Shown: piece after piece, positions 24,965 to 37,740 of the stretch
Layout of the letters: each line of letters starts with the position of its first letter
How positions within the stretch are numbered: the first letter of the stretch is position 1
Source: a bacterium
GTDB lineage: Bacteria; Patescibacteriota; Saccharimonadia; Saccharimonadales; SZUA-47
DNA: 64,000 bases
Direction: 5' to 3'
Assembly: GCA_030428125.1 (NCBI GenBank)
Contig: JAUIBF010000001.1
Location: 490,383-554,382 of the forward strand
The notes under the pieces: generated by a model
Database searches by the model: none
What the model saw: the letters and a program-made list of their open reading frames with translations, nothing else
What the model was told of the DNA's origin: nothing
Made by a program: the position numbers and the translations under genes

Positions 24965-25396
24965 ATGGCTAATAATGCATCTGTAGAGTTCAGGACTGGA
25001 GTTGCTGATCTTGATATGCATCTAAATGACGTTAGACCCTTTAGTCTATTCTTTAATTACGTCGTTGGGAGTTATCTAGAACGTCAAGCAAGCGAGCAAG
25101 AACAGGTAGCTGTCATGCCTACTCACATTACTGTAGCTCCATTTAATGATTTCGAACACGACCTGGCATATGACATCACTTCAGCCGTTGATTTAGAGCA
25201 CGGTCGAATGATTAGTGATGAATTCAAGCTTAAGCAAAAGTGGTTAGGTAGAGATCCGTACCAAACTCTTGGAATTGTTGATGCTGAAGACAGAGTTATT
25301 ATGGACAACGTAGGTAGAGCATACCTGGGTTCTTTGATTTTGTTGAAAGGGATGTATGAGGCTGCTCATAACCCCGATTTTCGTGGTACGAGCTAA
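24965..25396 (+). CDS. hypothetical protein
   Basis: 143-aa ORF downstream of the helicase; no motif recognised. Confidence 0.4.
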   Translation: MANNASVEFRTGVADLDMHLNDVRPFSLFFNYVVGSYLERQASEQEQVAVMPTHITVAPFNDFEHDLAYDITSAVDLEHGRMISDEFKLKQKWLGRDPYQTLGIVDAEDRVIMDNVGRAYLGSLILLKGMYEAAHNPDFRGTS

Positions 25397-25823
25397 TTCA
25401 ACAATTTAGTAATATTCTACTTTCTTAGACGTAATAGAGTAGCAAGAAACGACTCCCCGGCACCACGTTAGAAAAACAGGCTCTGCATCTGAATTAATTC
25501 ATATATACTTTTTTGGGGAGCTCGCTTTTAGCTCAAACAGTCCTCGGAAAGTCCAACAAAATAACCCACCCGCAACCAGGTTTTAGCCGGATGGGTATTA
25601 AGCAAATAATCATCACCATTGATTTTATCGATGATGACAATTTGTTCATCAACTTCATCTTAGGGTACTAATATCCAAGAGAATATACCCCCCCTTAATC
25701 GAATTAGGCCCAGGTTGCACTTAGTTATTAAAATTATACTTATCCACAAAAAATAAGATGTAACTAATTTTTGCGACAGTATTTGTTTGACAGTAAAGAG
25801 TTAATTATTTAAATTGTTAACGC

Positions 25824-26870
25824 ATGAGGGTTAAGCATAAATACAACGTAATTGACTTATTTTCTGGCATTGGAGGCTTCAGCAAGGGTTTTGAGAATGA
25901 AGGATTTGACATAAAACTTGGAATTGATAATTGGCCAATTGCTTTAAAAACATTCAAGACGAACCATAAAAATACCGAGATATTACTTGAAGATTTAACA
26001 AAAATAAAGAAAAATTATTATGAGGACCTACCATATAAGGTCGACATTATTATTGCAGGCCCTCCTTGCCAGGGATTTTCCATGGCAGGGAAGAGACAAG
26101 AAGACGATATACGTAATAGGCTTTTTAATGAGGTCGTTAGGGCTGCAAAATACACTAAAGCTCCTATTGTGATAATCGAGAACGTAGTTGGGCTAGTTTC
26201 AATGAAAGACATTGATGGAAATTCTGTCAAAGATAGAATAATTCATTCTTTGAAGGAAGTAGGTTACGACGTAGATTATAAAATTTTAACTGCTTCAGAT
26301 TATGGGGTGCCACAAAATAGAAGAAGAGTTGTGTTTGTGGCACATAAAAACAATAAGGCGTTTAGCTTTCCAAAAGAATCGGTAAAGAAAGTAACAGTTG
26401 GCGAAGCACTCGGTAACTTACCTGATGTAGAAAGTAAAAAATACACTAAACCTGAAAATAATTTCCAGCAATACTTAGAATCATCATCAAAAAAGATATA
26501 TAACCATACAAAAATGAACCACAGCAAAGCTGTTTCTGACCGTATTGCACTAGTTCCTGAGGGCGGGAATTGGCGAGATATACCGCCGGAGCATTATCGG
26601 GTAGGAGGAACTCATAGTAATAACTACCGTAGGCTCGATAGGTCAAAACCTTCAATAACAATTAAACATGCTACTAAGTCAATGATAATTCACCCAGTTT
26701 ACGACAGGGTAATAACTGCCAGGGAAGCAGCTAGGCTTCAATCTTTTCAGGATGACTTCTTCATTGAGGGTAGTAGCTTCGAACAGCATCAACAGCTTGC
26801 GAACGCCGTTCCGCCACTTCTTGGGGCGGCTATCGCAAAAGCTGTGAGGGAGTACATCGATAATGAGTAG
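25824..26870 (+). CDS. DNA (cytosine-5)-methyltransferase 1
   Basis: Motif I DLFSGIGGF, IV GPPCQGFS, VI ENV, VIII QNRRR, IX REAARLQSF, X NAVPPLL. Confidence 0.92.
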   Translation: MRVKHKYNVIDLFSGIGGFSKGFENEGFDIKLGIDNWPIALKTFKTNHKNTEILLEDLTKIKKNYYEDLPYKVDIIIAGPPCQGFSMAGKRQEDDIRNRLFNEVVRAAKYTKAPIVIIENVVGLVSMKDIDGNSVKDRIIHSLKEVGYDVDYKILTASDYGVPQNRRRVVFVAHKNNKAFSFPKESVKKVTVGEALGNLPDVESKKYTKPENNFQQYLESSSKKIYNHTKMNHSKAVSDRIALVPEGGNWRDIPPEHYRVGGTHSNNYRRLDRSKPSITIKHATKSMIIHPVYDRVITAREAARLQSFQDDFFIEGSSFEQHQQLANAVPPLLGAAIAKAVREYIDNE

Positions 26871-27846
26871 TAACGTTAAATTCATTGATCTATTTTGTGG
26901 GTTAGGTGGTTTCAGGATAGCCTTAGAAAATCTTGGGGGGACTTGTGTTTATAGCAGCGATAATGATAAGTATGTTCAAGACATATATAACCTAAATTTT
27001 GGAGAAATACCCGACGGAGATATAACTAAAGTCTCACCGAAAGAAGTTCCAGATCACGATATACTCTGCGCCGGTTTTCCATGTCAACCATTTTCTATAG
27101 GAGGATTACGTAAGGGCTTCTTAGACACCAGAGGAACCCTATTTTTCGATATTGAAAGGATTTTAAGGGCTAAAAAACCCAAGTCTTTTATTCTCGAGAA
27201 CGTAAAAGGCTTAACTAATCACGATGAAGGTAGAACTCTGGAAACCATACTGAGGACACTTGCTAAAACCGTTAACGGAAAGCCTTATGATCATGAAGGC
27301 AACTTAGGTTACGACGTATACTATAAAGTTTTAAATACAAAAGATTTCGGAATCCCACAAAACAGGGAAAGAATCTATATCATAGGAATTAAAAATTCAA
27401 AGAAAACTTTCGAGTTCCCTGCGACAAGCAGTAACAGTATGGGTCTGGATATATTGCTGTCTAAAACTACTAATAAGGAAGAGTACCGGGTGTCAACTAA
27501 CGTCTGTTCACAGATTCTGCATCATCTAGACTTAAAAAAAGATAGGTATTCAACCCTAATGGATGAACCATTAATAGCATACGAGGTCAGGCCTTCTAGG
27601 TGCTCATTTCGTCAAGATGGCGCAAGCCCTACTCTCACTGCAAAAATGGGAACCGGGGGTAATAACGTTCCTATTTATGTCCAAGAGATGAGAAAGTTAA
27701 CATTAAGAGAGTGTCTAGATTTGCAAGGATTCCCTGACAACTACGTATTTCCGGACAGGGGGATGCAAAGTTACAAACAGATAGGAAATAGTCTCACCGT
27801 ACCTGTTGTCGAGGCAATTGCGAGTAAGCTAATTCCGGTAATCTAG
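26863..27846 (+). CDS. DNA (cytosine-5)-methyltransferase 2
   Basis: Motif I DLFCGLGGF, IV GFPCQPFS, VI ENVKGL, VIII QNRERIYIIG, IX RECLDLQGF, X GNSLTVPV; 8-nt overlap with MTase 1. Confidence 0.92.
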   Translation: MSSNVKFIDLFCGLGGFRIALENLGGTCVYSSDNDKYVQDIYNLNFGEIPDGDITKVSPKEVPDHDILCAGFPCQPFSIGGLRKGFLDTRGTLFFDIERILRAKKPKSFILENVKGLTNHDEGRTLETILRTLAKTVNGKPYDHEGNLGYDVYYKVLNTKDFGIPQNRERIYIIGIKNSKKTFEFPATSSNSMGLDILLSKTTNKEEYRVSTNVCSQILHHLDLKKDRYSTLMDEPLIAYEVRPSRCSFRQDGASPTLTAKMGTGGNNVPIYVQEMRKLTLRECLDLQGFPDNYVFPDRGMQSYKQIGNSLTVPVVEAIASKLIPVI

Positions 27847-28592
27847 CGCTCCTTGCTAAGCTTATAAACGAGCTGATATTTCCCTTTACTTCGACCTGAC
27901 CCTGTAGTAACTATTAGTTTTTTTGTATTATTTGGTACAATCTCGTTATTAACTAGCAACCATGGAGCGTAATAAGGATCGTCAAACATTCCTATTCCAG
28001 AAAAAAACAGTGCCGAAATACTTTCGTTATTATTGGTTAAGTCTTCAATAATCTTATTGCTTAAAGCTTTTACCTTATTACAATATTCGAGATTTGATAT
28101 TTCTCCCGAAATACCATGATTGACCTCGAAGTAAGTTTTAAATTCTTCTTCTGTAGCACCCCAGCCCTTTATTACGTCAGTGTTCTTAACTAGCCCTTCC
28201 TGATTCTTGCAGTAAATTGAAGCTCCTGCACCTAGTTCTAAGTCTTTATATATCCTTTTAAACGCATCGGGGGAAATTTTTTGAATCGTAGAAGTATAGT
28301 CAGTGTTTAACTTAACGCTAATTCCACTTTCTGGGATCGGAAATACTCCGATTTTTTTAGCCTCGTCTTCATTAATATATTCTTTCAGATCACTTTTAGA
28401 TAAATTACTTGGCAATAACCCAAGATAAATATCTGATTTTGGCCTAACATTTCTCTTATGGACTTTGGAGTACTGAACAGTATTTACATGAACTGCTATG
28501 TAATTTCTATTGCCAAAAACAGACGGCACCAAGATCATGCCTTTATTAATAAGTTCCACTGATTCGACCTCATTTTCGTCCCCACTAATCAA
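27843..28592 (-). CDS. putative restriction endonuclease (second subunit or second enzyme)
   Basis: 249-aa ORF convergent with the MTases; stop codons overlap in CTAG; 8-nt overlap with the upstream nuclease candidate; shares an E/D...ISVK element (PESGISVK) with its neighbour. Assignment rests mainly on context. Confidence 0.45.
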   Translation of the reverse strand: MISGDENEVESVELINKGMILVPSVFGNRNYIAVHVNTVQYSKVHKRNVRPKSDIYLGLLPSNLSKSDLKEYINEDEAKKIGVFPIPESGISVKLNTDYTSTIQKISPDAFKRIYKDLELGAGASIYCKNQEGLVKNTDVIKGWGATEEEFKTYFEVNHGISGEISNLEYCNKVKALSNKIIEDLTNNNESISALFFSGIGMFDDPYYAPWLLVNNEIVPNNTKKLIVTTGSGRSKGKYQLVYKLSKER

Positions 28593-29313
28593 ATTGCATC
28601 TCCATGATATCCCTCTGTAATTTACCCCATTTGAATTGAATTTCTCCTCGTTTTTTTTCGGTACTATTCTTTTTATTTTCTAAATTTCTATTCCACGCTT
28701 GAAAAGTAAGCCCCCCCAAGCCAGGACAGGTAGACTTGCTAGATAAATATTCTATGGCTGTATCCATATCTACAATGTATCCATTAGACTTATCGCCATA
28801 ATATAAATAGTCGGCCTCCACTAAGTCGTCTTTTACTCCAACTTTTAAAACCCTTTTTAATATGTCTTCCTTGTGTAGATCTATGAATCTCTGAAAGTTA
28901 ACAATCTTATCCTTATGAAGCTTCTTAATTTGAGGAACCGACATCCTATCTACGGGATTACCCTTGCCGTCAAGTGTTAAGTCACCCCATATAAAAAATT
29001 TCAGATCATCACATACTGTTTGTGGTGCATTAAATTCAGATTTCAAAAATTCTACAAAATCCTCAATTGGCTCTTGGTGCACACTGTTGCCTGATCCTTT
29101 CTTGATGCTTACACCTAGCTTTTTATTCTTTACAGATATTTCAATATCTGCCTTCGAGCCACTGTTGGGCCTGGTGCATTTAATATTGTCAGCCAATCCA
29201 ATCTCGGGGAATAAGGCAATTACTATTCTTTTCAAATTGCTATTTAAGTTGTCGTAACTACAGTTCAATGCCGAAAGAAGCTGCTTTTCGTTTTCAAACC
29301 CAGTGATTTCCAT
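28585..29313 (-). CDS. putative type II restriction endonuclease (PD-(D/E)XK-like, MspI/HinP1I-like pattern)
   Basis: KADIEISVKNKKLGVSIKKGS resembles the D-x(n)-(N/S)-x-K catalytic arrangement, and the C-terminal ...KKRGEIQFKWG resembles what I recall of the MspI C-terminus. From memory only, not a database result. Confidence 0.5.
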   Translation of the reverse strand: MEITGFENEKQLLSALNCSYDNLNSNLKRIVIALFPEIGLADNIKCTRPNSGSKADIEISVKNKKLGVSIKKGSGNSVHQEPIEDFVEFLKSEFNAPQTVCDDLKFFIWGDLTLDGKGNPVDRMSVPQIKKLHKDKIVNFQRFIDLHKEDILKRVLKVGVKDDLVEADYLYYGDKSNGYIVDMDTAIEYLSSKSTCPGLGGLTFQAWNRNLENKKNSTEKKRGEIQFKWGKLQRDIMEMQFD

Positions 29314-29373
29314 AGAGTAATACTAACACAGTTGAGTGTAAATTATTTATTCGATAATATTTCTTAAGTATTT

Positions 29374-29793
29374 TCAATATTTATTCTGCATTATGTCTAG
29401 TTCATCTTGCAATTGGAATAGGTTTTTTCTTAGGTCTATTTCGCGCCAGGAGGTTAGTTTTCCTGCTACTTCAAGCGCTCTGCGCTCACCCCAGAGGCAG
29501 TCGTCGTCGTACCAGAGGAAGGGAACAGTCATATCAATCGCATCTGTTTTAGCAAGCGACCAAGCCGTCGGCTTAAATTTCTTAAGCCACGGGGTTAAAT
29601 CCTCATCTGAAGCTCGATTCACATACTCAACAGCGTGTTCAGGATCTCCATGCATGCAGTGTGTAGTCAGCCAATAAACTTCAAAATTATCAGCTACATA
29701 CTTGATAAAGTCAGCAGCTCCTTCAGCCAGATTATTTTCGTTGGCTAGCAGAACCCCATCAATATCCAAAAAAATCCTCGGCAACCTCTTCAT
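29374..29793 (-). CDS. small HAD-superfamily hydrolase-like protein
   Basis: Motif I FLDIDGVL at N-terminus and WYDDD near C-terminus; G+C resembles the core genome. Confidence 0.5.
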   Translation of the reverse strand: MKRLPRIFLDIDGVLLANENNLAEGAADFIKYVADNFEVYWLTTHCMHGDPEHAVEYVNRASDEDLTPWLKKFKPTAWSLAKTDAIDMTVPFLWYDDDCLWGERRALEVAGKLTSWREIDLRKNLFQLQDELDIMQNKY

Positions 29794-29856
29794 ACCCTAG
29801 ACTATACCACCCAGCCACAATTCCTTCTCGACTTCTTAACATATCAACCTCCTAAC

Positions 29857-29886
29857 TCCTTACTGTACAAGGACGTTCCTTGTACA
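29857..29886. repeat. left copy of a 30-bp perfect inverted repeat (itself a 9-bp-stem hairpin)
   Basis: TCCTTACTGTACAAGGACGTTCCTTGTACA; its reverse complement is identical to 34067-34096; internal stem TGTACAAGG/CCTTGTACA with 5-nt loop. Confidence 0.95.
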
Positions 29887-29904
29887 TAAGTGAAAGCGCT
29901 AGCT

Positions 29905-30528
29905 CTAATAACTCAAACGGTTTACGGCATCAGAATAATGCGGCTCACCACGAATATCATCCGGATACAAAATCCTCATTACTGCTTGAGTCTGTCCGTG
30001 AATATCGCTGACGTGTATCGCATTGTTAACTACTGGCAAAAACAGCTCTTCAAACTCTTGATTGTTTAGGCCCGCTGAATCTTCCCCGGAAACAAATTGA
30101 TATGGCTTGCAAGTCATACCTCTAATACCTAATTGTCGATCTACTATTTCGCCGTCCATATCAAAAGTCTCTGTTGATCCTTTTATATTTTCGAAGAGCA
30201 CTGAGGGATCTTCAGTTCTATAGACAAAGGGTATAAATGCAACTCTTCCTAGATACTCTCGCATTATCATAGGGTAATACCTTCTGTCTGATTTGTTCGC
30301 ATAAAATATCTCGAGTATTTTTCTGCCGTAAGGTACCGATCTTAAGTCCCTGATTATTGGAGATAACAACTGAATTTCCGATATCCTTCCATGTAATGGG
30401 TCATCAGCAACGAGTAAATCATGAGGGTAATTACCGTGAAGAGTTTCGACTATCAGTGGATCTAAAGTCTCGTCTAGTGCATGAGGCTTTATCATTATCA
30501 AACTTGTACCACTGACCAACTCAGACAT
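29905..30528 (-). CDS. divergent nucleoside-diphosphate-kinase-like protein
   Basis: SLIMIKPHAL (cf. NDK IIKPDGV), REYLGRVAFIPFVY...IKGST (cf. FMTSGPVV...LGAT) and NNAIHVSD (cf. NxxHGSD catalytic His); 207 aa, longer than typical ~140-150 aa NDK. Confidence 0.55.
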   Translation of the reverse strand: MSELVSGTSLIMIKPHALDETLDPLIVETLHGNYPHDLLVADDPLHGRISEIQLLSPIIRDLRSVPYGRKILEIFYANKSDRRYYPMIMREYLGRVAFIPFVYRTEDPSVLFENIKGSTETFDMDGEIVDRQLGIRGMTCKPYQFVSGEDSAGLNNQEFEELFLPVVNNAIHVSDIHGQTQAVMRILYPDDIRGEPHYSDAVNRLSY

Positions 30529-30530
30529 TG

Positions 30531-32549
30531 CTAAACCATTTCCTCTTCTGCTAACACAAAATTGCCAGTTTCTGCATCTACGATAACGTCAGCTATTTCT
30601 TTTGGGCGTGCATTCTGTTCGTAGATCCATTGTGCGGGCATGTATTTTCTGAGATATTTTCTAACTACTTCAATACCAAGTTTCGGAACATCGCGCTCTA
30701 TGGCACGACTAAGCATTTTGCCTATCGCTAAATCAATGTGAACCTTGTAATCGAATTCATCAACTAATTCCTCTCCAAAGAGAAAAACCCCTTCAACTAA
30801 TATCACATCAGGTCTAACATCATATGACTTTAGATAACTCATACCCGTAACAGGGTTTATATGCTCAAGAATCACCATATCACTCTGATCCCGTGCAAGG
30901 GTCGCAATTAGTTGTTTTAGCTTTTTTATATTAAAGGTGTGTTCTAGATAATTTAAGATTGGGTTATCTGAAGTATGTCTTACTTCTGAGTCATTTGAAA
31001 AATCATCAATTTGTATTTCTGTCACTCGTAGACCACTCTGTTCTAATTGACTCTTTAGTTCACTTGATAGTGTTGTTTTTCCAGACGTATCTACGCCACT
31101 TACACCAACGACACAACATTCATTAACTTCGCTCAGTTCCGCTATCTCTTGTGTTAAAAACTCTACGACATTTCGACCTTGCAGAGTATTAGTTGTTTCC
31201 GCAGAACCATCAACTAGCTTATTGATGCCCAGAATATTTATTTCTGGTAAGTGCTCCTGTAGGTATTTAAGAAGTGACTCTAATTCGTCAGGTTGAGTTT
31301 TAATGATTTTGTCAATTTGGGCTATCATGATTCGCAGTGCTTCTTTAAACTCAAGCCTATTATCAACCGGCTCCTCTTGGCTAATAAAGTTATCGAGGAT
31401 ATGCGCAAATGAAACTGACGGGCCGCTATTTGACCCTTTTTGGTCAACAAGTCTATCGACATCAACCTCATTACCATTCATAATCGCTTCCAGTTTAAAC
31501 CACAATAGATAACCGGGCAGTTTATCGGTTACGAACTTTGACTCGACTCCAATCTGATGTTTTACACACCACTCCCTAATTAATTCCTCCCAAACTGTAA
31601 ATACTTCAGTATTTAATTCACGACCTCCGAAATTTTCATATAGCTGCTTGGAGTGTTCGCGAAGGTCAATAAATGCATACCCTCGATCCGACTGCTGCCA
31701 ATACCCTAATTCAGTGGAAACACTATTTTCAAAAGGGTAGAGTTTATTGGGCAATAAGACCTTGTGATATGGACTTTCTAGTGCTCGACTTTTTGGGTCG
31801 CAACCAATTGTACTCAAGCAATCTTTCTGTAAAGTTCCACCAAAAGCCTTAAGCACAACAGCTAGTGTAAATAATGTTCTGCCCCTATAGAATAGATCGT
31901 CAATAAAATGTACAGGTTTATCGCTAGCTAGAATTTCCGCCAATCGTGTTCCTCTAAGAACAGCCTGAATGAGGGCCAAGCTAGGCAGCCTTTCCTCGAT
32001 TGTCTCAATCATTTCAATACATTTATCAAGTTCCTGCGACAACTGCGAATCATCCGTAACGTGCTTGAAGGGCCCTGGCACTGAATAGCCAGCAAGGATT
32101 GACACAACTTCACCTCTTGTCATGCCTTTATGTATTAAACCTGTGTCTTCCTGTGACTGAGCAATAAAATTAAATGTACTTTCAGATAACTCTTCATCTT
32201 TTTCATCATCCGATAAAAGCGTAAGCAGCTGGACAGATAGAGGTGCTTTTTCGATAGACATCAGTTTCATGTCTGTATAATCTTCCCCTAATGCCAAAAT
32301 ATATTCTGACACATACCTATTTCCACCCTGAATCACGACTCTGTGTCCGGCAGTCGTATCATCAACCCATCGATCCACCGTCGTCATTAGTTCTGATTTT
32401 GATATGCGCTCGCCCGAGGCAAAAGTGTTACTTCCAGGACGAGGAGGCTGAACAAGATAATTAAGATCTGTGCCGTTTATGGTTTCATACGACATAGGGC
32501 TTTGCTCCCTAACAGAAGCTAGTTCAGCATTTTCACCTATGGAATTCAT
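30531..32549 (-). CDS. fusion protein: phosphoribosyltransferase-like N-terminal region + uridine kinase/PRK-family P-loop kinase C-terminal domain
   Basis: PRPP-loop-like KPVHFIDDLFYRGRTL (aa ~215-230). C-terminal VVGVSGVDTSGKTT (P-loop), DVILVEGVFLF, DYKVHIDLAIGKMLSRAIERD and ADVIVD match uridine kinase family landmarks. Confidence 0.55.
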   Translation of the reverse strand: MNSIGENAELASVREQSPMSYETINGTDLNYLVQPPRPGSNTFASGERISKSELMTTVDRWVDDTTAGHRVVIQGGNRYVSEYILALGEDYTDMKLMSIEKAPLSVQLLTLLSDDEKDEELSESTFNFIAQSQEDTGLIHKGMTRGEVVSILAGYSVPGPFKHVTDDSQLSQELDKCIEMIETIEERLPSLALIQAVLRGTRLAEILASDKPVHFIDDLFYRGRTLFTLAVVLKAFGGTLQKDCLSTIGCDPKSRALESPYHKVLLPNKLYPFENSVSTELGYWQQSDRGYAFIDLREHSKQLYENFGGRELNTEVFTVWEELIREWCVKHQIGVESKFVTDKLPGYLLWFKLEAIMNGNEVDVDRLVDQKGSNSGPSVSFAHILDNFISQEEPVDNRLEFKEALRIMIAQIDKIIKTQPDELESLLKYLQEHLPEINILGINKLVDGSAETTNTLQGRNVVEFLTQEIAELSEVNECCVVGVSGVDTSGKTTLSSELKSQLEQSGLRVTEIQIDDFSNDSEVRHTSDNPILNYLEHTFNIKKLKQLIATLARDQSDMVILEHINPVTGMSYLKSYDVRPDVILVEGVFLFGEELVDEFDYKVHIDLAIGKMLSRAIERDVPKLGIEVVRKYLRKYMPAQWIYEQNARPKEIADVIVDAETGNFVLAEEEMV

Positions 32550-32555
32550 AATAAG

Positions 32556-33578
32556 CTACTCTTTCAAATCACTAAGAACTCTGAGTAATAATTCATTTTC
32601 TTCAGAGCTTCCTACTGTTACCCTTATGCAATCGTTGAAAGTCCCTAGAATACTTCTAGGACGCACAACTATTGAATTTTCACTTAATATCCTAGCCATA
32701 TGGTCTGATTTACGAGATTTAATAATCAAGAAATTTGTTTGCGTATTTTCTACTGAGTAGCCCATTGTTGATAACCTTTCAAAAACTAACGACTTTTGTT
32801 TTAAGACACTTTTCACTTCTGATTCAAGTTTATCCATCTGTGTCATAGCCGACACTGCAGCCTCTAAGCCAATGCTGCTTACACTGTATGGTTGCTTTAG
32901 AGCTTCAAGTGAATCTTTGTGTGAACTTTCGCATAGAACGTAACCAATTCTGGCGCCTGCCAAACCCCATGCTTTGGAGAAAGTACGTAGAACAAAAATA
33001 TTTTGATTTTTTATCACTTGTTTATAGTATGAGTAATTCAGCCCTGAGTATTCTATATAAGCTTCATCGATTATAATTTTTCCTTTAAATTCTGCAATCA
33101 ACTGTTGTAGTTTAGAGTAGTCCATTAAATTGCCGGTTGGATTGTTTGGATGAATTAATACGAGTAAGCTAGCTTCGTTATTTAATTTAAGAATTTCTTG
33201 AACGTCAGGCTGGTAATCCGCATCTAGCTGAACAGTTAATACTTTCTTATTTTTTGCTACTGAACGCTGACTATATAAATCATATGTCGGCTTATTTAGT
33301 ATTACGGTCTCGGGGTTAACATAGTCAATAAGTAAGTCTATTCCTGCTATAGATCCTGCCGTCAAAACTATATTTTCACTTGACAAGCCTTTATTATTTT
33401 TAGCAATTAAATCTACTAATATTGAATTGAGTTTGCTGTCTGGATATCTATTAAGGTTCAAAAGTGCACTGACGTGTAATGATGCCCATTGGGTTGGATG
33501 TTCGTTAGCGTCAAGTAACATGCTGTCTTTTGTTGCGTTGTCTCTGTCTGTTCTATAACGCTGGAGTACTCTTTGCAT
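32556..33578 (-). CDS. class I/II PLP aminotransferase (HisC/CobD-like)
   Basis: NPNNPTG, IIDEAYIEY, LRTFSKAWGLAGARIGY (PLP-lysine motif). Confidence 0.8.
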   Translation of the reverse strand: MQRVLQRYRTDRDNATKDSMLLDANEHPTQWASLHVSALLNLNRYPDSKLNSILVDLIAKNNKGLSSENIVLTAGSIAGIDLLIDYVNPETVILNKPTYDLYSQRSVAKNKKVLTVQLDADYQPDVQEILKLNNEASLLVLIHPNNPTGNLMDYSKLQQLIAEFKGKIIIDEAYIEYSGLNYSYYKQVIKNQNIFVLRTFSKAWGLAGARIGYVLCESSHKDSLEALKQPYSVSSIGLEAAVSAMTQMDKLESEVKSVLKQKSLVFERLSTMGYSVENTQTNFLIIKSRKSDHMARILSENSIVVRPRSILGTFNDCIRVTVGSSEENELLLRVLSDLKE

Positions 33579-33657
33579 GTTTATATTTTATAATATAGTT
33601 TGTTTTTTTACTATTTTGTTTTATCTTATTTTTTTATATGGCAGGTACATCTTAGGG

Positions 33658-33667
33658 TTGATATAAT
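33658..33667 (+). promoter_or_regulatory. extended -10 promoter (TGaTATAAT) directly abutting the NUDIX start codon; predicts a leaderless mRNA
   Basis: TTGATATAAT ends 6 nt before ATG 33674; no Shine-Dalgarno in between. Confidence 0.35.
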
Positions 33668-33673
33668 CAAGCT

Positions 33674-34051
33674 ATGCGAAAAAGAGCTGGTGCATTAATT
33701 ATCTCTGATAAGAAACTTTTACTTATTAACGAAGGAGATCAGGGTTTTTTCTGGACGCCAGGCGGAGGACTAGAGGGTAATGAATCCTTCGAAACTGCCC
33801 TTAAACGAGAGTTGCATGAAGAACTCGGGGCTAAGACAGAATCAATAGAATTGTTTTTTCAAATGCTAGACGAAAACGAAAAAGAAGAAGTTAAATATTT
33901 CATTATAAATAAGTTCGATAAACTTGAGGTGCCTAATGATACAAAAATATTATGGTACAGTCGCGAAATGTACGAAAATGATTCAGTACGAATATCTAAA
34001 AGGGTGCACAAGCACGTCGTCCCGAAGCTGATTTCGGAAGATTTTTTATAG
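33674..34051 (+). CDS. NUDIX hydrolase
   Basis: Nudix box GGGLEGNESFETALKRELHEELG (Gx5Ex7REUxEExGU). Confidence 0.85.
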   Translation: MRKRAGALIISDKKLLLINEGDQGFFWTPGGGLEGNESFETALKRELHEELGAKTESIELFFQMLDENEKEEVKYFIINKFDKLEVPNDTKILWYSREMYENDSVRISKRVHKHVVPKLISEDFL

Positions 34052-34066
34052 GTATATCATGAAAAC

Positions 34067-34096
34067 TGTACAAGGAACGTCCTTGTACAGTAAGGA
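34067..34096. repeat. right copy of the 30-bp perfect inverted repeat
   Basis: TGTACAAGGAACGTCCTTGTACAGTAAGGA is the exact reverse complement of 29857-29886. Confidence 0.95.
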
Positions 34097-34104
34097 TAAG
34101 TTAA

Positions 34105-34524
34105 CTAGTTTACTAGTTCGCCACCCATATCAACAACTGCGGTATAAGCACCTAGATTAACTACCTCTCCGTAATTAGCCTTGTCCAGAATTGCTTTTGC
34201 AACTGTAGATCTGCTACCACTTCGGCAGTAGACATATATTTTACTGTCAGAGGGGATATCGGGGTATCTTCCAGACTGCAAATCCTGCAGAGGTAAGTTC
34301 TGGGCGCCACCAATATGGCCGTCATCGAACTCTTCGATTGTCCTGACATCAAACAGATAAGCAGTACCTGCACTAATTTCGCTTTCTATCTGAGCAAAAT
34401 CAACTACTCCATCATTCCGAGCCTTAACGATATCAGAATCGTTACTATTGCTGTTATTGCCAACGTATAGTCCGATTCCCAGTATCGCTAATAAAACTGC
34501 AGTGATTATAATTGCTATCTTCAT
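34105..34524 (-). CDS. membrane-anchored rhodanese-domain sulfurtransferase
   Basis: N-terminal TM; DVRTIEEFDDGHIGGAQNLP and active-site loop YCRSGSRS. Confidence 0.8.
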   Translation of the reverse strand: MKIAIIITAVLLAILGIGLYVGNNSNSNDSDIVKARNDGVVDFAQIESEISAGTAYLFDVRTIEEFDDGHIGGAQNLPLQDLQSGRYPDIPSDSKIYVYCRSGSRSTVAKAILDKANYGEVVNLGAYTAVVDMGGELVN

Positions 34525-34526
34525 TT

Positions 34527-34916
34527 TTACCCTCGTAATTTTACTTTACATTTTTCGCATTCGCCCTGAATAGTTAGCCTACCAGAAACCCTACAACCAC
34601 CTAAAGCTTCTACTATGGTCGGCATTACATCATCGACAACGTTAATATCCTTGATGCCACCACAAACACGACATATAAAATGGTCGTGAGGGGAAGTATT
34701 TATATCAAACTTCATTGACCCATCTGACTCTGGTGGGGCTAAAGCTAAGGCCCCACTATCGACCAGTCGTGATGTAACTCTATGCACCGTGGTTGCACTC
34801 AAGTCAGGGAATTCTAATCGCAGTTTATCGATTAGTTCGGCATTACTAGCATGGCCAAGCTCAGTAATTGTATCTAAAACTGCTTTGGAATATTTAGTTG
34901 CCCTTGACGAAATCAT
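34527..34916 (-). CDS. Fur-family metalloregulator
   Basis: Winged-helix N-terminus (TVHRVTSRL), HDHFICRVCG and CEKC structural zinc CxxC pairs. Confidence 0.8.
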   Translation of the reverse strand: MISSRATKYSKAVLDTITELGHASNAELIDKLRLEFPDLSATTVHRVTSRLVDSGALALAPPESDGSMKFDINTSPHDHFICRVCGGIKDINVVDDVMPTIVEALGGCRVSGRLTIQGECEKCKVKLRG

Positions 34917-34972
34917 GGCTCTTATTGTAAATTATTTACATTAAGATATCAATATGTAAGTGTGGAGAAGCA

Positions 34973-35233
34973 ATGAAAAGAATTTTTATCGATGTACGTG
35001 AGCCATTCGAGTTCAATATGGGGCATGTAGAAGGGGCGATAAACGTACATCCCGCAGAACTAATGGCTGGAGCGCCTAGTTTAAATGACATCGATAAAGA
35101 TACCGAGCTAATCCTTTACTGCAGAAGTGGCGCCAGATCTAACGCCAGCATGCATTATTTGCGTGATATGGGCTTCACAAACCTGGTTAACGGTATAAAT
35201 CAAGCACAAGTTGAAGCTAAATACGACGTCTAG
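34973..35233 (+). CDS. single-domain rhodanese
   Basis: IDVREPFEFNMGHVEGAINV and active-site YCRSGARS. Confidence 0.8.
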   Translation: MKRIFIDVREPFEFNMGHVEGAINVHPAELMAGAPSLNDIDKDTELILYCRSGARSNASMHYLRDMGFTNLVNGINQAQVEAKYDV

Positions 35234-35236
35234 AGA

Positions 35237-35563
35237 CTACGCAACATCTCTTTTTTCGAGTTTTTGTTTCGCATCTGCTCTGCGTTTAATCGCAGTTAGG
35301 TCATCTGCATGCACGGGCATGCCTAGCTCATAACGCTCGTCTTCATCCATACCAGCCCAAACCCCAACTTCTTCGTGCTCGCTAATATAGTTCAAACATT
35401 CATTGAATACTGGACAAGTTGCACAGATTGCTTTAGCAGCAGCTAGGCGCTTCTCCCTTGAGCTGAGTCTCTCGCTAAATGACGCCTGAAAAGGATTTTT
35501 CGGTCTTTTGTATGCGTCTATACACGCTGCCTCATCACGCCAGCTAGCTTCTATCTCAGACAT
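35237..35563 (-). CDS. WhiB-like (Wbl) Fe-S transcription factor
   Basis: W..EAAC ... AKAICATCPVFNECLNY ... VGVWAGMDEDER reproduces the Wbl pattern C-x(n)-CxxCxxxxxC followed by the G[VI]W[GA]G turn. Confidence 0.7.
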   Translation of the reverse strand: MSEIEASWRDEAACIDAYKRPKNPFQASFSERLSSREKRLAAAKAICATCPVFNECLNYISEHEEVGVWAGMDEDERYELGMPVHADDLTAIKRRADAKQKLEKRDVA

Positions 35564-36018: not shown

Positions 36019-37740
36019 ATGAACGCAAAAACACCACTGTTGGAGCGACAGTTAGACGGTCTAATGACCAGCTATGAAAATGCACAAGTTGCAGCTGCAC
36101 AAGCTCCTGACCTTGCACGGGCTACCCTTAATAGCCAAGTTGAAGTTATCCAAACTCAGATAGAGGAGTTCTTCGCAACAGATGCAGTAGTTGCAGCCCT
36201 AGACGAGCTACGAGACCTTAGGACTGCCGAATATGAAAAGATAGGTGAATTGTTTGCTGACGGTAAAATAACCGATTCTGAGCTAGATGAGCGTATTGAG
36301 GCTATTGAAAACAGCCCTAAATACCGTCTATTAGGCCTTGCAACGGAATTAGGCGCTTTTGCCCTTGATGACGTGTCCGTTGAGACAGTAGAAGATACTC
36401 CAGAGGATGATGTCGAGTTTGTGCCATTTATCCCTGTAGAAATCACCACTGAAAAGCTTGATGCTATCTCAGAATCAGCGGATTCTGATCTTGAACCTGA
36501 AGAGCTAGAGCTAATCGGTGAAGTAGTGGAAGATTTTGAAGCGTTAGAGCCTGAAACCATTATTTTTACTGAAACCGAGGCTGACACAGATGATACAGGT
36601 TTGACGTTTAATGCTCTAGATGACGACACTGAAGAGGTAGACATTCTAGAAAACGCTACACTTGATGCTATTGATGTGGCATTTGAGGCTATAGAATCAG
36701 ATCCAGCAGATCCTGAAGAAGTGTTTTACGACGAAGAGATTGTTGCCTCCGAAGAACCAATGCTTCCAGAGGTAGAAGATGATTCAACTTTAGACACCAT
36801 AGCCGAAGAAAGGCCTATAGAACTAGAGCCAACCACGGATGAGGTTACTGTTGAGCACGCACTGATCTTTGCCGAGGAGGTTGCTGACCTTACAAAAGAC
36901 AGAGATGAATTAAAAGTAGTTGCTCCAAAGTATCTGCTCAAGAGCACCTTGCGCAAAGCAGCTGACACCGATTTGCGCTACGTTACCCCAGAAATGCGCA
37001 GGGAGGCCATTACATCCATTTTATCAATTCTAGACAGCGAAGACCCTCTGATTTCATTCATGACTGATGCCGAAAGTAGTCAAGCGATGTTTGATTTTAC
37101 TGATTGGTCTGCGTCGGTAATCGAAAGTCCAAAATGGGCAGCTGTTAAGAGCCAATTGATTGATTCTGTAAGAATCGTCGAGGAATCACCAGCGCTACCA
37201 GCAACTACTGCGACAATTAGCGCTGAAGAAGAAATAGCAACTCCTCTTGTTGCTGAAGAAAACGGAGTAGCCGAGGAAACTACTGCTAAAATCGTTGAGT
37301 TACCGATTAAGTCGGAAATTGAACCGGAAGATACTAAACACGAAACAGATGAAGATACAGAAGATGCTGAAATAATTGATGTAAATTCTCGAATCGAGGA
37401 AAAAGTTGAGAAAGAAGCTGTTGCAAGTGCTGTCGAAGTATTAGTTGAGACAGACAACCTATTCGAGGGTGAAATCAGCTTAAGCGAATTTCGCTCAAGA
37501 ACCGGCATAGACACTGAGGTGTTCGTGGAAGTTTATCGCACGGGTATCTTAGAGTTGGATGAAAAAGAAAAGCATGTTGCAATCAAAGAGATAAAGATCA
37601 ATGCGACAGAGGCAATATTGCTACAGATGCACGCATCAAATCGTAACTTGATAAACAATGCAGACAACACAGTAAAAGCCAGAATCCTAAGCTCAGTTAA
37701 GTCCGAGATTAGCCGTCAAGAAGCTCTAAAAGTAGCCTAA
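36019..37740 (+). CDS. very acidic (Glu/Asp-rich) protein, function unknown
   Basis: 573-aa ORF; long low-complexity acidic stretches; C-terminal ~90 aa less biased. Confidence 0.5.
   Translation: MNAKTPLLERQLDGLMTSYENAQVAAAQAPDLARATLNSQVEVIQTQIEEFFATDAVVAALDELRDLRTAEYEKIGELFADGKITDSELDERIEAIENSPKYRLLGLATELGAFALDDVSVETVEDTPEDDVEFVPFIPVEITTEKLDAISESADSDLEPEELELIGEVVEDFEALEPETIIFTETEADTDDTGLTFNALDDDTEEVDILENATLDAIDVAFEAIESDPADPEEVFYDEEIVASEEPMLPEVEDDSTLDTIAEERPIELEPTTDEVTVEHALIFAEEVADLTKDRDELKVVAPKYLLKSTLRKAADTDLRYVTPEMRREAITSILSILDSEDPLISFMTDAESSQAMFDFTDWSASVIESPKWAAVKSQLIDSVRIVEESPALPATTATISAEEEIATPLVAEENGVAEETTAKIVELPIKSEIEPEDTKHETDEDTEDAEIIDVNSRIEEKVEKEAVASAVEVLVETDNLFEGEISLSEFRSRTGIDTEVFVEVYRTGILELDEKEKHVAIKEIKINATEAILLQMHASNRNLINNADNTVKARILSSVKSEISRQEALKVA

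Follow-up and report, generated by a model that had tools for sequence, protein, structure and literature searches.

What does a bacterial protein do that carries, in one polypeptide, a region resembling phosphoribosyltransferases (PRTases) and a kinase of the uridine kinase (UK) family? The question is raised by a 672-aa open reading frame (ORF) at positions 30531..32549 on the minus strand (ATG at 32549, end of the stop codon at 30531) of the stretch of DNA analysed here. The stretch, below called the window, covers 64,000 nt of a Saccharimonadales genome (assembly GCA_030428125.1, contig JAUIBF010000001.1, positions 490,383 to 554,382). An earlier note, made from the sequence of this DNA, had read the ORF as a PRTase-like region and a uridine-kinase-family domain with a long linker between them, fused in the reverse of the order seen in eukaryotic fusions of a kinase and a uracil PRTase (UPRT). 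The answer that we favour, and to which we give a probability of about 50%, is that the protein combines an enzyme forming a ribotide from phosphoribosyl pyrophosphate (PRPP) with a kinase, and that both belong to a dedicated pathway of a non-canonical, nucleotide-like metabolite, whose substrate we leave unnamed.

A conserved N-terminal module of ~450 aa

The 672-aa ORF is no chance reading frame but a genuine gene, since its product has 18 homologues (E-values from 1e-31 to 1e-133), since an exhaustive HMMER profile search with the protein family returned 51 representatives, and since the AlphaFold2 model of the whole protein is confident, with a mean predicted local distance difference test (pLDDT) of 83. 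All motifs quoted in the earlier note are present in this ORF: VHFIDDLFYRGRTL at aa 213-226, GVSGVDTSGKTT at aa 482-493, ILVEGVFLF at aa 583-591, DYKVHIDLAIGKMLSRAIERD at aa 600-620 and ADVIVD at aa 653-658. The homologues and the model agree with a fusion of an N-terminal PRTase-like module (hereafter N-module) and a C-terminal UK-family kinase.

Conservation runs unbroken from aa ~36 to aa 447 in the alignment of 19 homologues. Invariant are QGGNR (aa 74-78), F-DDLFYRGRT (aa 215-225), Y-FENS-E-GYW (aa 271-284), D369-Q370, G376, Q391-E392 and R398. Seven homologues of 445-562 aa consist of the N-module alone, and their C-terminal ends coincide with the drop of pLDDT at aa 448-459 of the window protein. 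This short segment (31173..31208, minus strand), with pLDDT below 50 in both models, is the true inter-domain linker. The earlier note had left the first ~200 aa unassigned and had taken ~260 aa in the middle of the protein for a linker; both regions turned out to be conserved and confidently folded, and thus are parts of one folded unit. Residues 1-447 form a single conserved module of ~450 aa: a type-I-PRTase-like core with a helical insert, and a helical domain.

The latter (aa 296-447; 31209..31664, minus strand) is all-helical and carries the invariant residues D369, Q370, G376, Q391, E392 and R398. It is preceded by the invariant segment YPFENS..TE.GYW (aa 271-284; 31698..31739, minus strand), which may take the hood or base-binding position of a PRTase. 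The structure search gave no known counterpart for the helical insert (aa ~100-210) or for the helical domain, which together make up ~60% of the N-module. Curated profiles (Pfam, NCBIfam, PHROGs and PADLOC) compared with the whole protein matched the kinase part only, and the N-module has no Pfam or NCBIfam model.

Similarity of the N-module to type I PRTases

The PRTase-like core (aa 36-300; 31650..32444, minus strand) was delineated by Foldseek, profile and weak Pfam matches. The Foldseek list of the full-length model was filled with kinase matches and uninformative on the N-module; therefore, the N-module was modelled separately (pLDDT 81, predicted template modelling score 0.78). With this model, ~45 of the top 50 matches in the PDB were type I PRTases (HGPRT, APRT, XPRT), with probability up to 0.97. 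A broader profile of the core (A4), built with the sister family described below, had PyrR as its sole matches in the PDB (E-values 0.09-1.5), the alignment falling on VDDVLYTGRT of PyrR versus IDDLFYRGRT. A profile of the stand-alone homologues (A2) gave only spurious coiled-coil matches (coronavirus spike) among PDB sequences. The commonest weak Pfam match among family members was PF00156 (three of 23 members, best E-value 0.0082).

The pattern of a PRPP loop (a hydrophobic strand, two acidic residues, four residues, G-x-T and the start of a helix) is present as V-H-F-I-D-D-L-F-Y-R-G-R-T at aa 213-225. The earlier note had singled out this place, VHFIDDLFYRGRTL (31872..31913, minus strand), as PRPP-loop-like, and the suggestion is borne out: the motif is near-invariant, it is modelled as a strand (aa 213-220), a loop and a helix (aa 224-235), almost all of the best structural matches are type I PRTases, and the PyrR profile matches fall on this very loop. 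QGGNR (32316..32330, minus strand), located between a strand (aa 69-74) and a helix (aa 78-86), is a candidate pyrophosphate (PPi)-binding loop, which we take to resemble the L-K-G-G PPi loop of HGPRT. QGGNR and DD-FYRGRT are near-invariant in 39 representatives, and both sit on strand-loop-helix elements. The corresponding loops of the sister family, F-x-E-(A/S)-G and (I/F)-D-(D/E)-x-x-S-R-G-R-T, are more canonical. Taken together, these signals make it likely that the N-module contains a divergent PRTase-like core; for the N-terminal half, the PRTase fold (a five-stranded parallel beta-sheet core with flanking helices) is indicated by matches that all stay below threshold.

The predicted alpha/beta core of the N-module is most similar to the type I PRTases (HGPRT, APRT, XPRT, PyrR/UPRT; PF00156), with which it shares the PRPP-loop pattern, for which the VDDVLYTGRT loop of PyrR is the closest in sequence, and an earlier G-G loop after the first strand. 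It differs from them in having no significant sequence match, in the helical insert of ~110 aa between the two loops (31920-32252, minus strand) and the extra helical domain of ~150 aa, in invariant motifs of its own (YPFENS..TE.GYW, DQ(K/R), QEE), and in its size of ~450 aa, more than twice the usual ~180-230 aa.

A kinase of the PRK/UK/PanK superfamily

Profile, structure and motif evidence place the C-terminal domain (aa 460-666; 30552..31172, minus strand) among the P-loop kinases of the phosphoribulokinase/uridine kinase/pantothenate kinase (PRK/UK/PanK) superfamily. PF00485 matched aa 480-627 with 24.5 bits, just over the 22 bits required by its gathering score. The best match among PDB sequences, over the full length of the domain, was 1rz3, an uncharacterized 'possible uridine kinase' (E-value 1.6e-12), followed by UCK2 (5e-6), Thermus thermophilus uridine kinase, UCK1 and NRK1. 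The Foldseek search with the full-length model returned 1rz3 as well, with an E-value of 3.4e-12 and a template modelling (TM) score (target) of 0.76; other matches were PanK, UCK2, phosphoribulokinase and a putative fructose-transport kinase. The assignment of the last ~200 aa to the PRK/uridine kinase family in the earlier note therefore stands. Its two-domain description as a whole divided the profile searches: PF00485 matched the window protein, the PRTase families did not.

The elements expected from Udk/UCK, i.e. the P-loop GxxxxGK[ST], the catalytic Asp after strand 2 and the lid arginines, were all found. They correspond to Walker A (aa 482-493; 31071-31106) with GVDTSGKT at aa 485-492, to IDDF (aa 514-517; 30999-31010) and to the lid R-x-x-x-RD within aa 612-620 (30690-30716) with RAIERD at aa 615-620, all on the minus strand, and they are conserved in all kinases of the gene cassette described below. 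Scores against NCBIfam models are 53.2 bits for NF004018 (uridine kinase; cut-off 180), 49.9 bits for TIGR00235 (cut-off 220.3) and 66 bits for PRK07667 ('kinase'; cut-off 221). From the intact motifs, the superfamily matches and the scores far under the Udk cut-offs we conclude that the C-terminal domain is, as judged by sequence, an intact small-molecule kinase of the PRK/UK/PanK superfamily and not a Udk orthologue; the grouping with UK-family kinases holds, that with Udk proper does not.

At 66 bits versus 221, the domain is not a member of PRK07667 either. 1rz3, the PRK07667 protein RBSTP0775 of Geobacillus stearothermophilus, is nevertheless its best match in both sequence and structure; the function of the PRK07667 family is itself unknown and, unlike the window kinase, its members are not fused to a PRTase-like module. 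The UCK2 residues Tyr112 and His117, presumably the positions that read the pyrimidine, align with Ile and Gly in the window kinase and are not conserved among the cassette kinases. The loss of base-recognition residues is tentative, because identity in this HMMER alignment is only ~22%.

A cassette with an aminotransferase, an NDK-like protein and CYTH

Ten related loci (L001, L003, L004, L006, L008, L009, L011/P0021-type, L014, L015 and L016) define a cassette in the order HisC-like aminotransferase, N-module, UK-like kinase, CYTH and an NDK-like protein of ~200 aa. The genes overlap or abut; in most cases the N-module gene begins within the last part of the aminotransferase gene. The kinase forms a fusion with the N-module or with CYTH (L009, L016), or is a separate protein (L001). 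A PRPP synthetase gene directly follows the cassette in L009. The window has the order aminotransferase, fusion gene and NDK-like gene, with gaps of 6 and 2 non-coding bases (ORF ends include stop codons). No description of an N-module/kinase/aminotransferase cassette was found in the literature.

The first cassette gene of the window (32556..33578, minus strand) encodes a HisC-like pyridoxal phosphate (PLP) aminotransferase (PF00155, E-value 2.5e-39), which lies directly upstream of the N-module in the 10 related loci too. It reaches 241.1 bits with the TIGR01141 hisC model (cut-off 276.55) and scores higher as HisC than as CobD. Its closest PDB matches are HisC enzymes (E-value 4.7e-30), with the PLP-lysine motif SKAWGLAG aligned with SKAFALAG, and by the HisC alignment it keeps two arginines, which we take to be the substrate-phosphate binders of Escherichia coli HisC.

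The last cassette gene (29905..30528, minus strand) encodes a divergent NDK-like protein of 207 aa with 35-45% identity to the ~200-aa family of the other cassettes. In seven members K14, R136, N169, H172 and D175 are invariant and IKPHA is conserved; N-x-x-H-x-(S/C)-D matches the catalytic-histidine motif of NDK, and three NDK motifs are collinear in profile alignments. The match to PF00334 has 15.2 bits (gathering score 27, E-value 0.02), and PDB profile matches to NDK have E-values of 0.2-1.4. The family is as rare as the N-module. It also occurs outside the full cassette: as a CYTH and NDK-like pair beside a serine recombinase in L020 (6779-9477), and alone in L017-L019 (L017 8694-9687) beside a 34-aa Nudix box remnant, on a contig with archaeal-type mevalonate pathway genes.

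The cassette CYTH proteins keep the ExExK motif, the Arg/Lys residues of the tunnel and the C-terminal ExE pair. By their conserved residues the partner enzymes, i.e. CYTH, the NDK-like protein and the aminotransferase, look active. The UK-like kinase and CYTH are joined in bacterial fusions of 473 aa in L009 (9295-10716) and L016 (4354-5775), in which CYTH has the catalytic ExExK.

These fusions have the kinase-then-CYTH order of plant TTM1 and TTM2, which combine a UCK-like kinase with a CYTH/TTM domain; a 2022 paper described the kinase-CYTH tandem as unique to plants. In plant TTM1/2 the UCK-like domain phosphorylates uridine in no more than trace amounts (kcat ~0.1 per min), and its true substrate is unknown; the tunnel of AtTTM1 is catalytically inactive (PMC9582702). 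The cassette proteins differ from TTM1/2 in several respects: their CYTH retains the catalytic ExExK motif, a membrane anchor is missing, CYTH is not part of the window protein, and the window kinase shows no special sequence closeness to the plant kinases.

Distribution, fusions and a sister family

The search covered 1.84 billion proteins, with representatives at 50% identity. The N-module is very rare, with 51 representatives in this collection, several of which belong to the sister family; all identified so far are from bacteria of the candidate phyla radiation (CPR), one member being named 'Patescibacteria group bacterium' by NCBI. A scan of 185,579 species genomes yielded two N-module loci, each from a metagenome-assembled genome of Candidatus Saccharibacteria/Saccharimonadales, and a metagenome collection added two more. 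Scans of viral contigs, phages and plasmids detected no relatives of the N-module, and the Foldseek viral library gave nothing meaningful.

Among 39 long N-module members, 12 have the architecture of the window protein, with the N-module followed by a UK-like kinase. In 11 members a P-loop domain precedes the N-module, two further members carry such a P-loop domain, the N-module and a C-terminal CYTH, 11 consist of the N-module alone and three have other N-terminal extensions. The N-terminal P-loop domain (13 of the 39) aligns over the full length with archaeal AdkA-like/UPF0200 kinases (3lw7 and 3h0k, E-value ~3e-9). The two fusion types thus join the N-module to two unrelated kinase families, and the distribution of architectures shows that these fusions and those with CYTH arose independently.

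The triple fusion of AdkA-like kinase, N-module and CYTH (P0019, 872 aa; L012 6264-8882, L013 531-4172) has no aminotransferase neighbour. A DUF1846 gene (PF08903) directly follows the gene of P0019.

The sister family of the N-module (P0056, P0059-P0063, P0076 and P0077) has ~447-474 aa. Two of its members, P0061 and P0077, from Gracilibacteria and relatives, lie in a conserved cluster (L021 5826-13665, L022 5825-13660) with genes for an SsuA/NMT1-type binding protein, two sulfatase/phosphodiesterase-like proteins and an ABC permease and ATPase. The cluster also has a divergent HisRS/HisZ-like paralogue that scores under the hisS and hisZ cut-offs.

HisG, a PRTase that is not of type I, has HisZ as its partner. 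The histidine pathway (HisG-HisZ; HisC) thus offers a parallel, in that the N-module pairs with a HisC-like protein and the sister family with a HisRS/HisZ-like one. No other his genes are present, and the scores stay under the hisC, hisS and hisZ cut-offs. We use these two partners, both from families that bind histidine-type ligands, as no more than a lead to the substrate.

A proposed pathway

In the reading that we favour, the N-module would attach 5-phosphoribose from PRPP to a non-standard base or amine, giving a ribotide and PPi, and the fused kinase would phosphorylate the riboside or ribotide that corresponds to it. Making or editing an amine- or keto-bearing, probably phosphorylated, substrate (the aglycone or a phosphorylated precursor) would fall to the translationally coupled HisC-like aminotransferase. 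The NDK-like protein would then raise the phosphorylation state, and CYTH at other loci, possibly NUDIX in the window, would hydrolyse or cyclise the polyphosphate of a triphosphate end product. Recurrent fusions and the tight operon show that PRTase-like, kinase, NDK-like, CYTH and transamination steps belong to one process. Use of PRPP fits with the PRPP synthetase gene that adjoins the cassette in L009. Domain boundaries, conservation, fold similarity, the cassette and the network of fusions are shown by the analysis; use of PRPP, the sequence of reactions and the kind of substrate are inferred.

Several observations weigh against this proposal. Assignment of the N-module to the PRTases is a convergence of concordant signals, each of which is sub-threshold. 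Its Foldseek matches have E-values of 0.039 or higher, TM-scores (target) of 0.45-0.51 and root-mean-square deviations of 7-12 Å, obtained with an AlphaFold model from a shallow alignment of 8-19 sequences. PF00156 and UPRT models gave no match to the window protein at E ≤ 1, and hhalign comparison of the family profile with single HPRT and Apt sequences gave a probability of ~2% and had no power, although the best local alignment to Apt falls on its PRPP loop VVDDLLATGGT. The parts list of the cassette is not fixed, because the UK-like kinase was not seen in L003, L004 and L014, and CYTH was not found in a search throughout the 64-kb window. The cassette has no oxidoreductase or isomerase that could make a keto group for the aminotransferase. 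Finally, UK-family kinases normally phosphorylate hydroxyl groups, and the product of a PRTase would not need 5' phosphorylation; thus the kinase step may run parallel to the PRTase step, as a riboside route.

A more specific version, which we regard as speculative and on balance unlikely, is a self-contained line of non-canonical nucleotide synthesis. A HisC-type transaminase would supply an unusual amine- or imidazole-type base, which the PRTase-like enzyme would ribosylate with PRPP and which the fused kinase and the NDK-like protein would carry to the triphosphate, with CYTH or, in the window, NUDIX cyclising or trimming it; the product, a nucleotide not known before, would serve these ultra-small epibionts as a signal, a toxin or a nucleic-acid precursor in conflicts with phages or host bacteria.

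The block around the fusion gene and its neighbourhood

Divergently oriented to the cassette, a NUDIX hydrolase gene (33674..34051, plus strand) was identified by PF00293 (E-value 7e-11) and a regular-expression match to the canonical Nudix box. The protein has weak matches to NTP and RNA pyrophosphohydrolases, and possibly it is a functional stand-in for the CYTH that the window lacks, if it belongs with the cassette.

A repeat search detected a perfect 30-bp inverted repeat that encloses exactly the NDK-like, fusion, aminotransferase and NUDIX genes, a block of 4.24 kb. The left arm (29857..29886) lies 19 nt past the stop codon of the NDK-like gene and the right arm (34067..34096) 16 nt past that of the NUDIX gene; each arm can form a hairpin. 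This is the only such pair in the 64-kb window, where none is expected by chance. The repeat was not found in the related loci examined. The block contains no transposase, and a clear duplication of target sequence is missing. The two arms could be a pair of terminators, or they could mark the boundaries of a segment that was moved as a whole.

The GC content is 0.33-0.42 over 25000-34000, where restriction-modification genes and the cassette are located, versus 0.42-0.47 on the flanks, with a minimum over the aminotransferase gene. What appears to be one type II restriction enzyme is spread over two overlapping ORFs (27843-28592 and 28585-29313, minus strand), which match positions 12-257 and 306-525 of the 527-position PADLOC model REase_II; two tandem C5-cytosine DNA methyltransferase genes (25824-26870 and 26863-27846, plus strand) adjoin it. 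The split may reflect an inactivating frameshift or a genuine two-subunit enzyme.

Between the restriction genes and the left repeat arm, a gene at 29374-29793 (minus strand) with its own GGAGG ribosome-binding site encodes a 139-aa HAD-type protein with a DxDGV motif and weak Pfam matches. We rejected it as a part of the system, as it is missing from the other loci and lies outside the inverted-repeat block. Just past the right arm, a compact group at 34105-35563 encodes two rhodaneses, the first followed by a Fur-family regulator and the second by one of the WhiB family. Further on, at 36019-37740 (plus strand), a 573-aa protein consists of Asp and Glu to 26% and has no Pfam match; long Ser-rich antisense ORFs that overlap its gene are probably a compositional artefact.

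Alternative explanations

The cassette is accessory: it is rare, patchy in distribution and variable in content. It could be a horizontally moved conflict or anti-phage module that makes a nucleotide-derived toxin or signal, or drains PRPP or NTP pools upon infection, an unlikely explanation taken by itself, though compatible with the chemistry proposed above. Rarity and patchiness, restriction-modification or Abi neighbours and the lower GC content make a role in conflicts with phages or hosts plausible. At four of ~11 loci (the window, L003, L004 and L014), no more than a few genes separate such neighbours from the cassette; the content is modular and shuffled, the GC content is lowered at 25-34 kb, the inverted repeat surrounds the window block, and the CYTH and NDK-like pair of L020 stands beside a recombinase. 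There is a precedent in Retron-Eco11, whose PRTase-like effectors deplete PRPP (PMC12746101).

Other observations do not fit with a conflict module. PADLOC gave no match for the cassette proteins except a P-loop-only match to VakA (E-value 0.008), and none for the aminotransferase or the NDK-like protein; no relatives occur on phages, plasmids or viral contigs; the cassette has no sensor, reverse transcriptase or non-coding RNA (ncRNA); and seven loci, in what is a small sample, have housekeeping neighbours. Like the N-module, the retron type III-A3 effectors (Retron-Eco11; PMC12746101) are divergent PRTase-like proteins with a PRPP motif that are used for other ends than classical salvage, and some of the cassette loci have defence genes around them. 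The cassette differs from them in its partner genes and in lacking a winged helix-turn-helix domain along with the reverse transcriptase and ncRNA.

It is decidedly unlikely that the N-module is non-catalytic and acts as a PRPP or nucleotide sensor controlling the attached kinase and the cassette, in the manner of PurR and partly of PyrR. The sole sequence-level matches are indeed to PyrR, a regulator with a PRTase fold, reuse of PRTase folds as sensors has been described (PMC12746101), and in plant TTM1 a neighbouring domain has been proposed to regulate the UCK-like kinase (PMC9582702). However, the N-module is often a separate protein translationally coupled to an enzyme gene, and it has no nucleic-acid-binding domain. 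Its near-invariance over QGGNR, the DD pair, YPFENS..GYW, DQ(K/R) and QE is a pattern typical of a two-substrate active site.

The N-module could also be a generic Rossmann-like core with a phosphate loop that binds another phosphorylated ligand, such as a nucleotide, and is not PRTase-like in function. We consider this very unlikely, even though the PRTase matches are all sub-threshold with low TM-scores and ~60% of the N-module has no counterpart: the list of structural matches is specific for PRTases and not a mixture of Rossmann-like folds, the two hallmark loops appear in the right order on the right secondary-structure elements, and L009 has the adjacent PRPP synthetase gene.

Least probable of all, with only a slim chance, is the explanation to which the earlier note points, a reversed UPRT-uridine kinase fusion for canonical base and nucleoside salvage, with both domains leading to the same standard nucleoside monophosphate (NMP) as in eukaryotic UCKL1/UKL. 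Saccharibacteria depend on salvage, the kinase belongs to the uridine kinase family, the PRPP loop is most like that of PyrR, a UPRT-related protein, and there is a known rationale for fusing two routes to one NMP, from the base and from the nucleoside. Still, the window protein has no UPRT or Pribosyltran match and reaches 50-53 bits with the Udk equivalog models, which require 180-220; the UCK2 positions Tyr112 and His117 are, tentatively, aligned to non-conserved residues. A core salvage enzyme should be phylum-wide, not limited to 51 representatives among 1.84 billion proteins, and linkage to a HisC-like aminotransferase, usually with CYTH and NDK-like proteins, would be superfluous for simple salvage. 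UCKL1/UKL likewise has a UK-family kinase and a PRTase-fold domain in one polypeptide; there the kinase precedes the UPRT, whereas the window protein has the opposite order, no UPRT match, a kinase that is not a Udk/UCK orthologue, and an operon with aminotransferase and NDK-like genes (and CYTH in related loci). The earlier note is therefore supported in part: it was right in seeing a PRTase-like region and a UK-family kinase in one protein, wrong about the linker and probably wrong about the function.

Two further candidates were set aside: an analogy with the cobalamin nucleotide loop (CobT/CobD/CobU/CobC), dropped because the hisC model fits the aminotransferase better than CobD does and the neighbourhood has no cobalamin genes, and a retron-type PRTase effector, rejected because reverse transcriptase and ncRNA are missing and the retron motif Gx14PNNxP occurs in no member.

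Implications

Saccharibacteria and other CPR bacteria have tiny genomes with many unannotated genes and live by exploiting host bacteria. The N-module and its partners form a previously undescribed cassette and represent a new and divergent offshoot of enzyme superfamilies already known, arranged in a new way; a ~450-aa family without a Pfam or NCBIfam model is thereby tied, tentatively, to the PRTase superfamily. Were the window protein an odd salvage enzyme instead, an annotation gap would be fixed and the interest would be local. If the PRPP-dependent pathway proposed here is true, it would be a new route to a non-standard nucleotide, with a new enzyme family in nucleotide metabolism and a bacterial equivalent of the kinase-CYTH proteins TTM1/2 of plants, and its product might be a new small molecule in the interaction of an epibiont with its host or of a bacterium with its phages.

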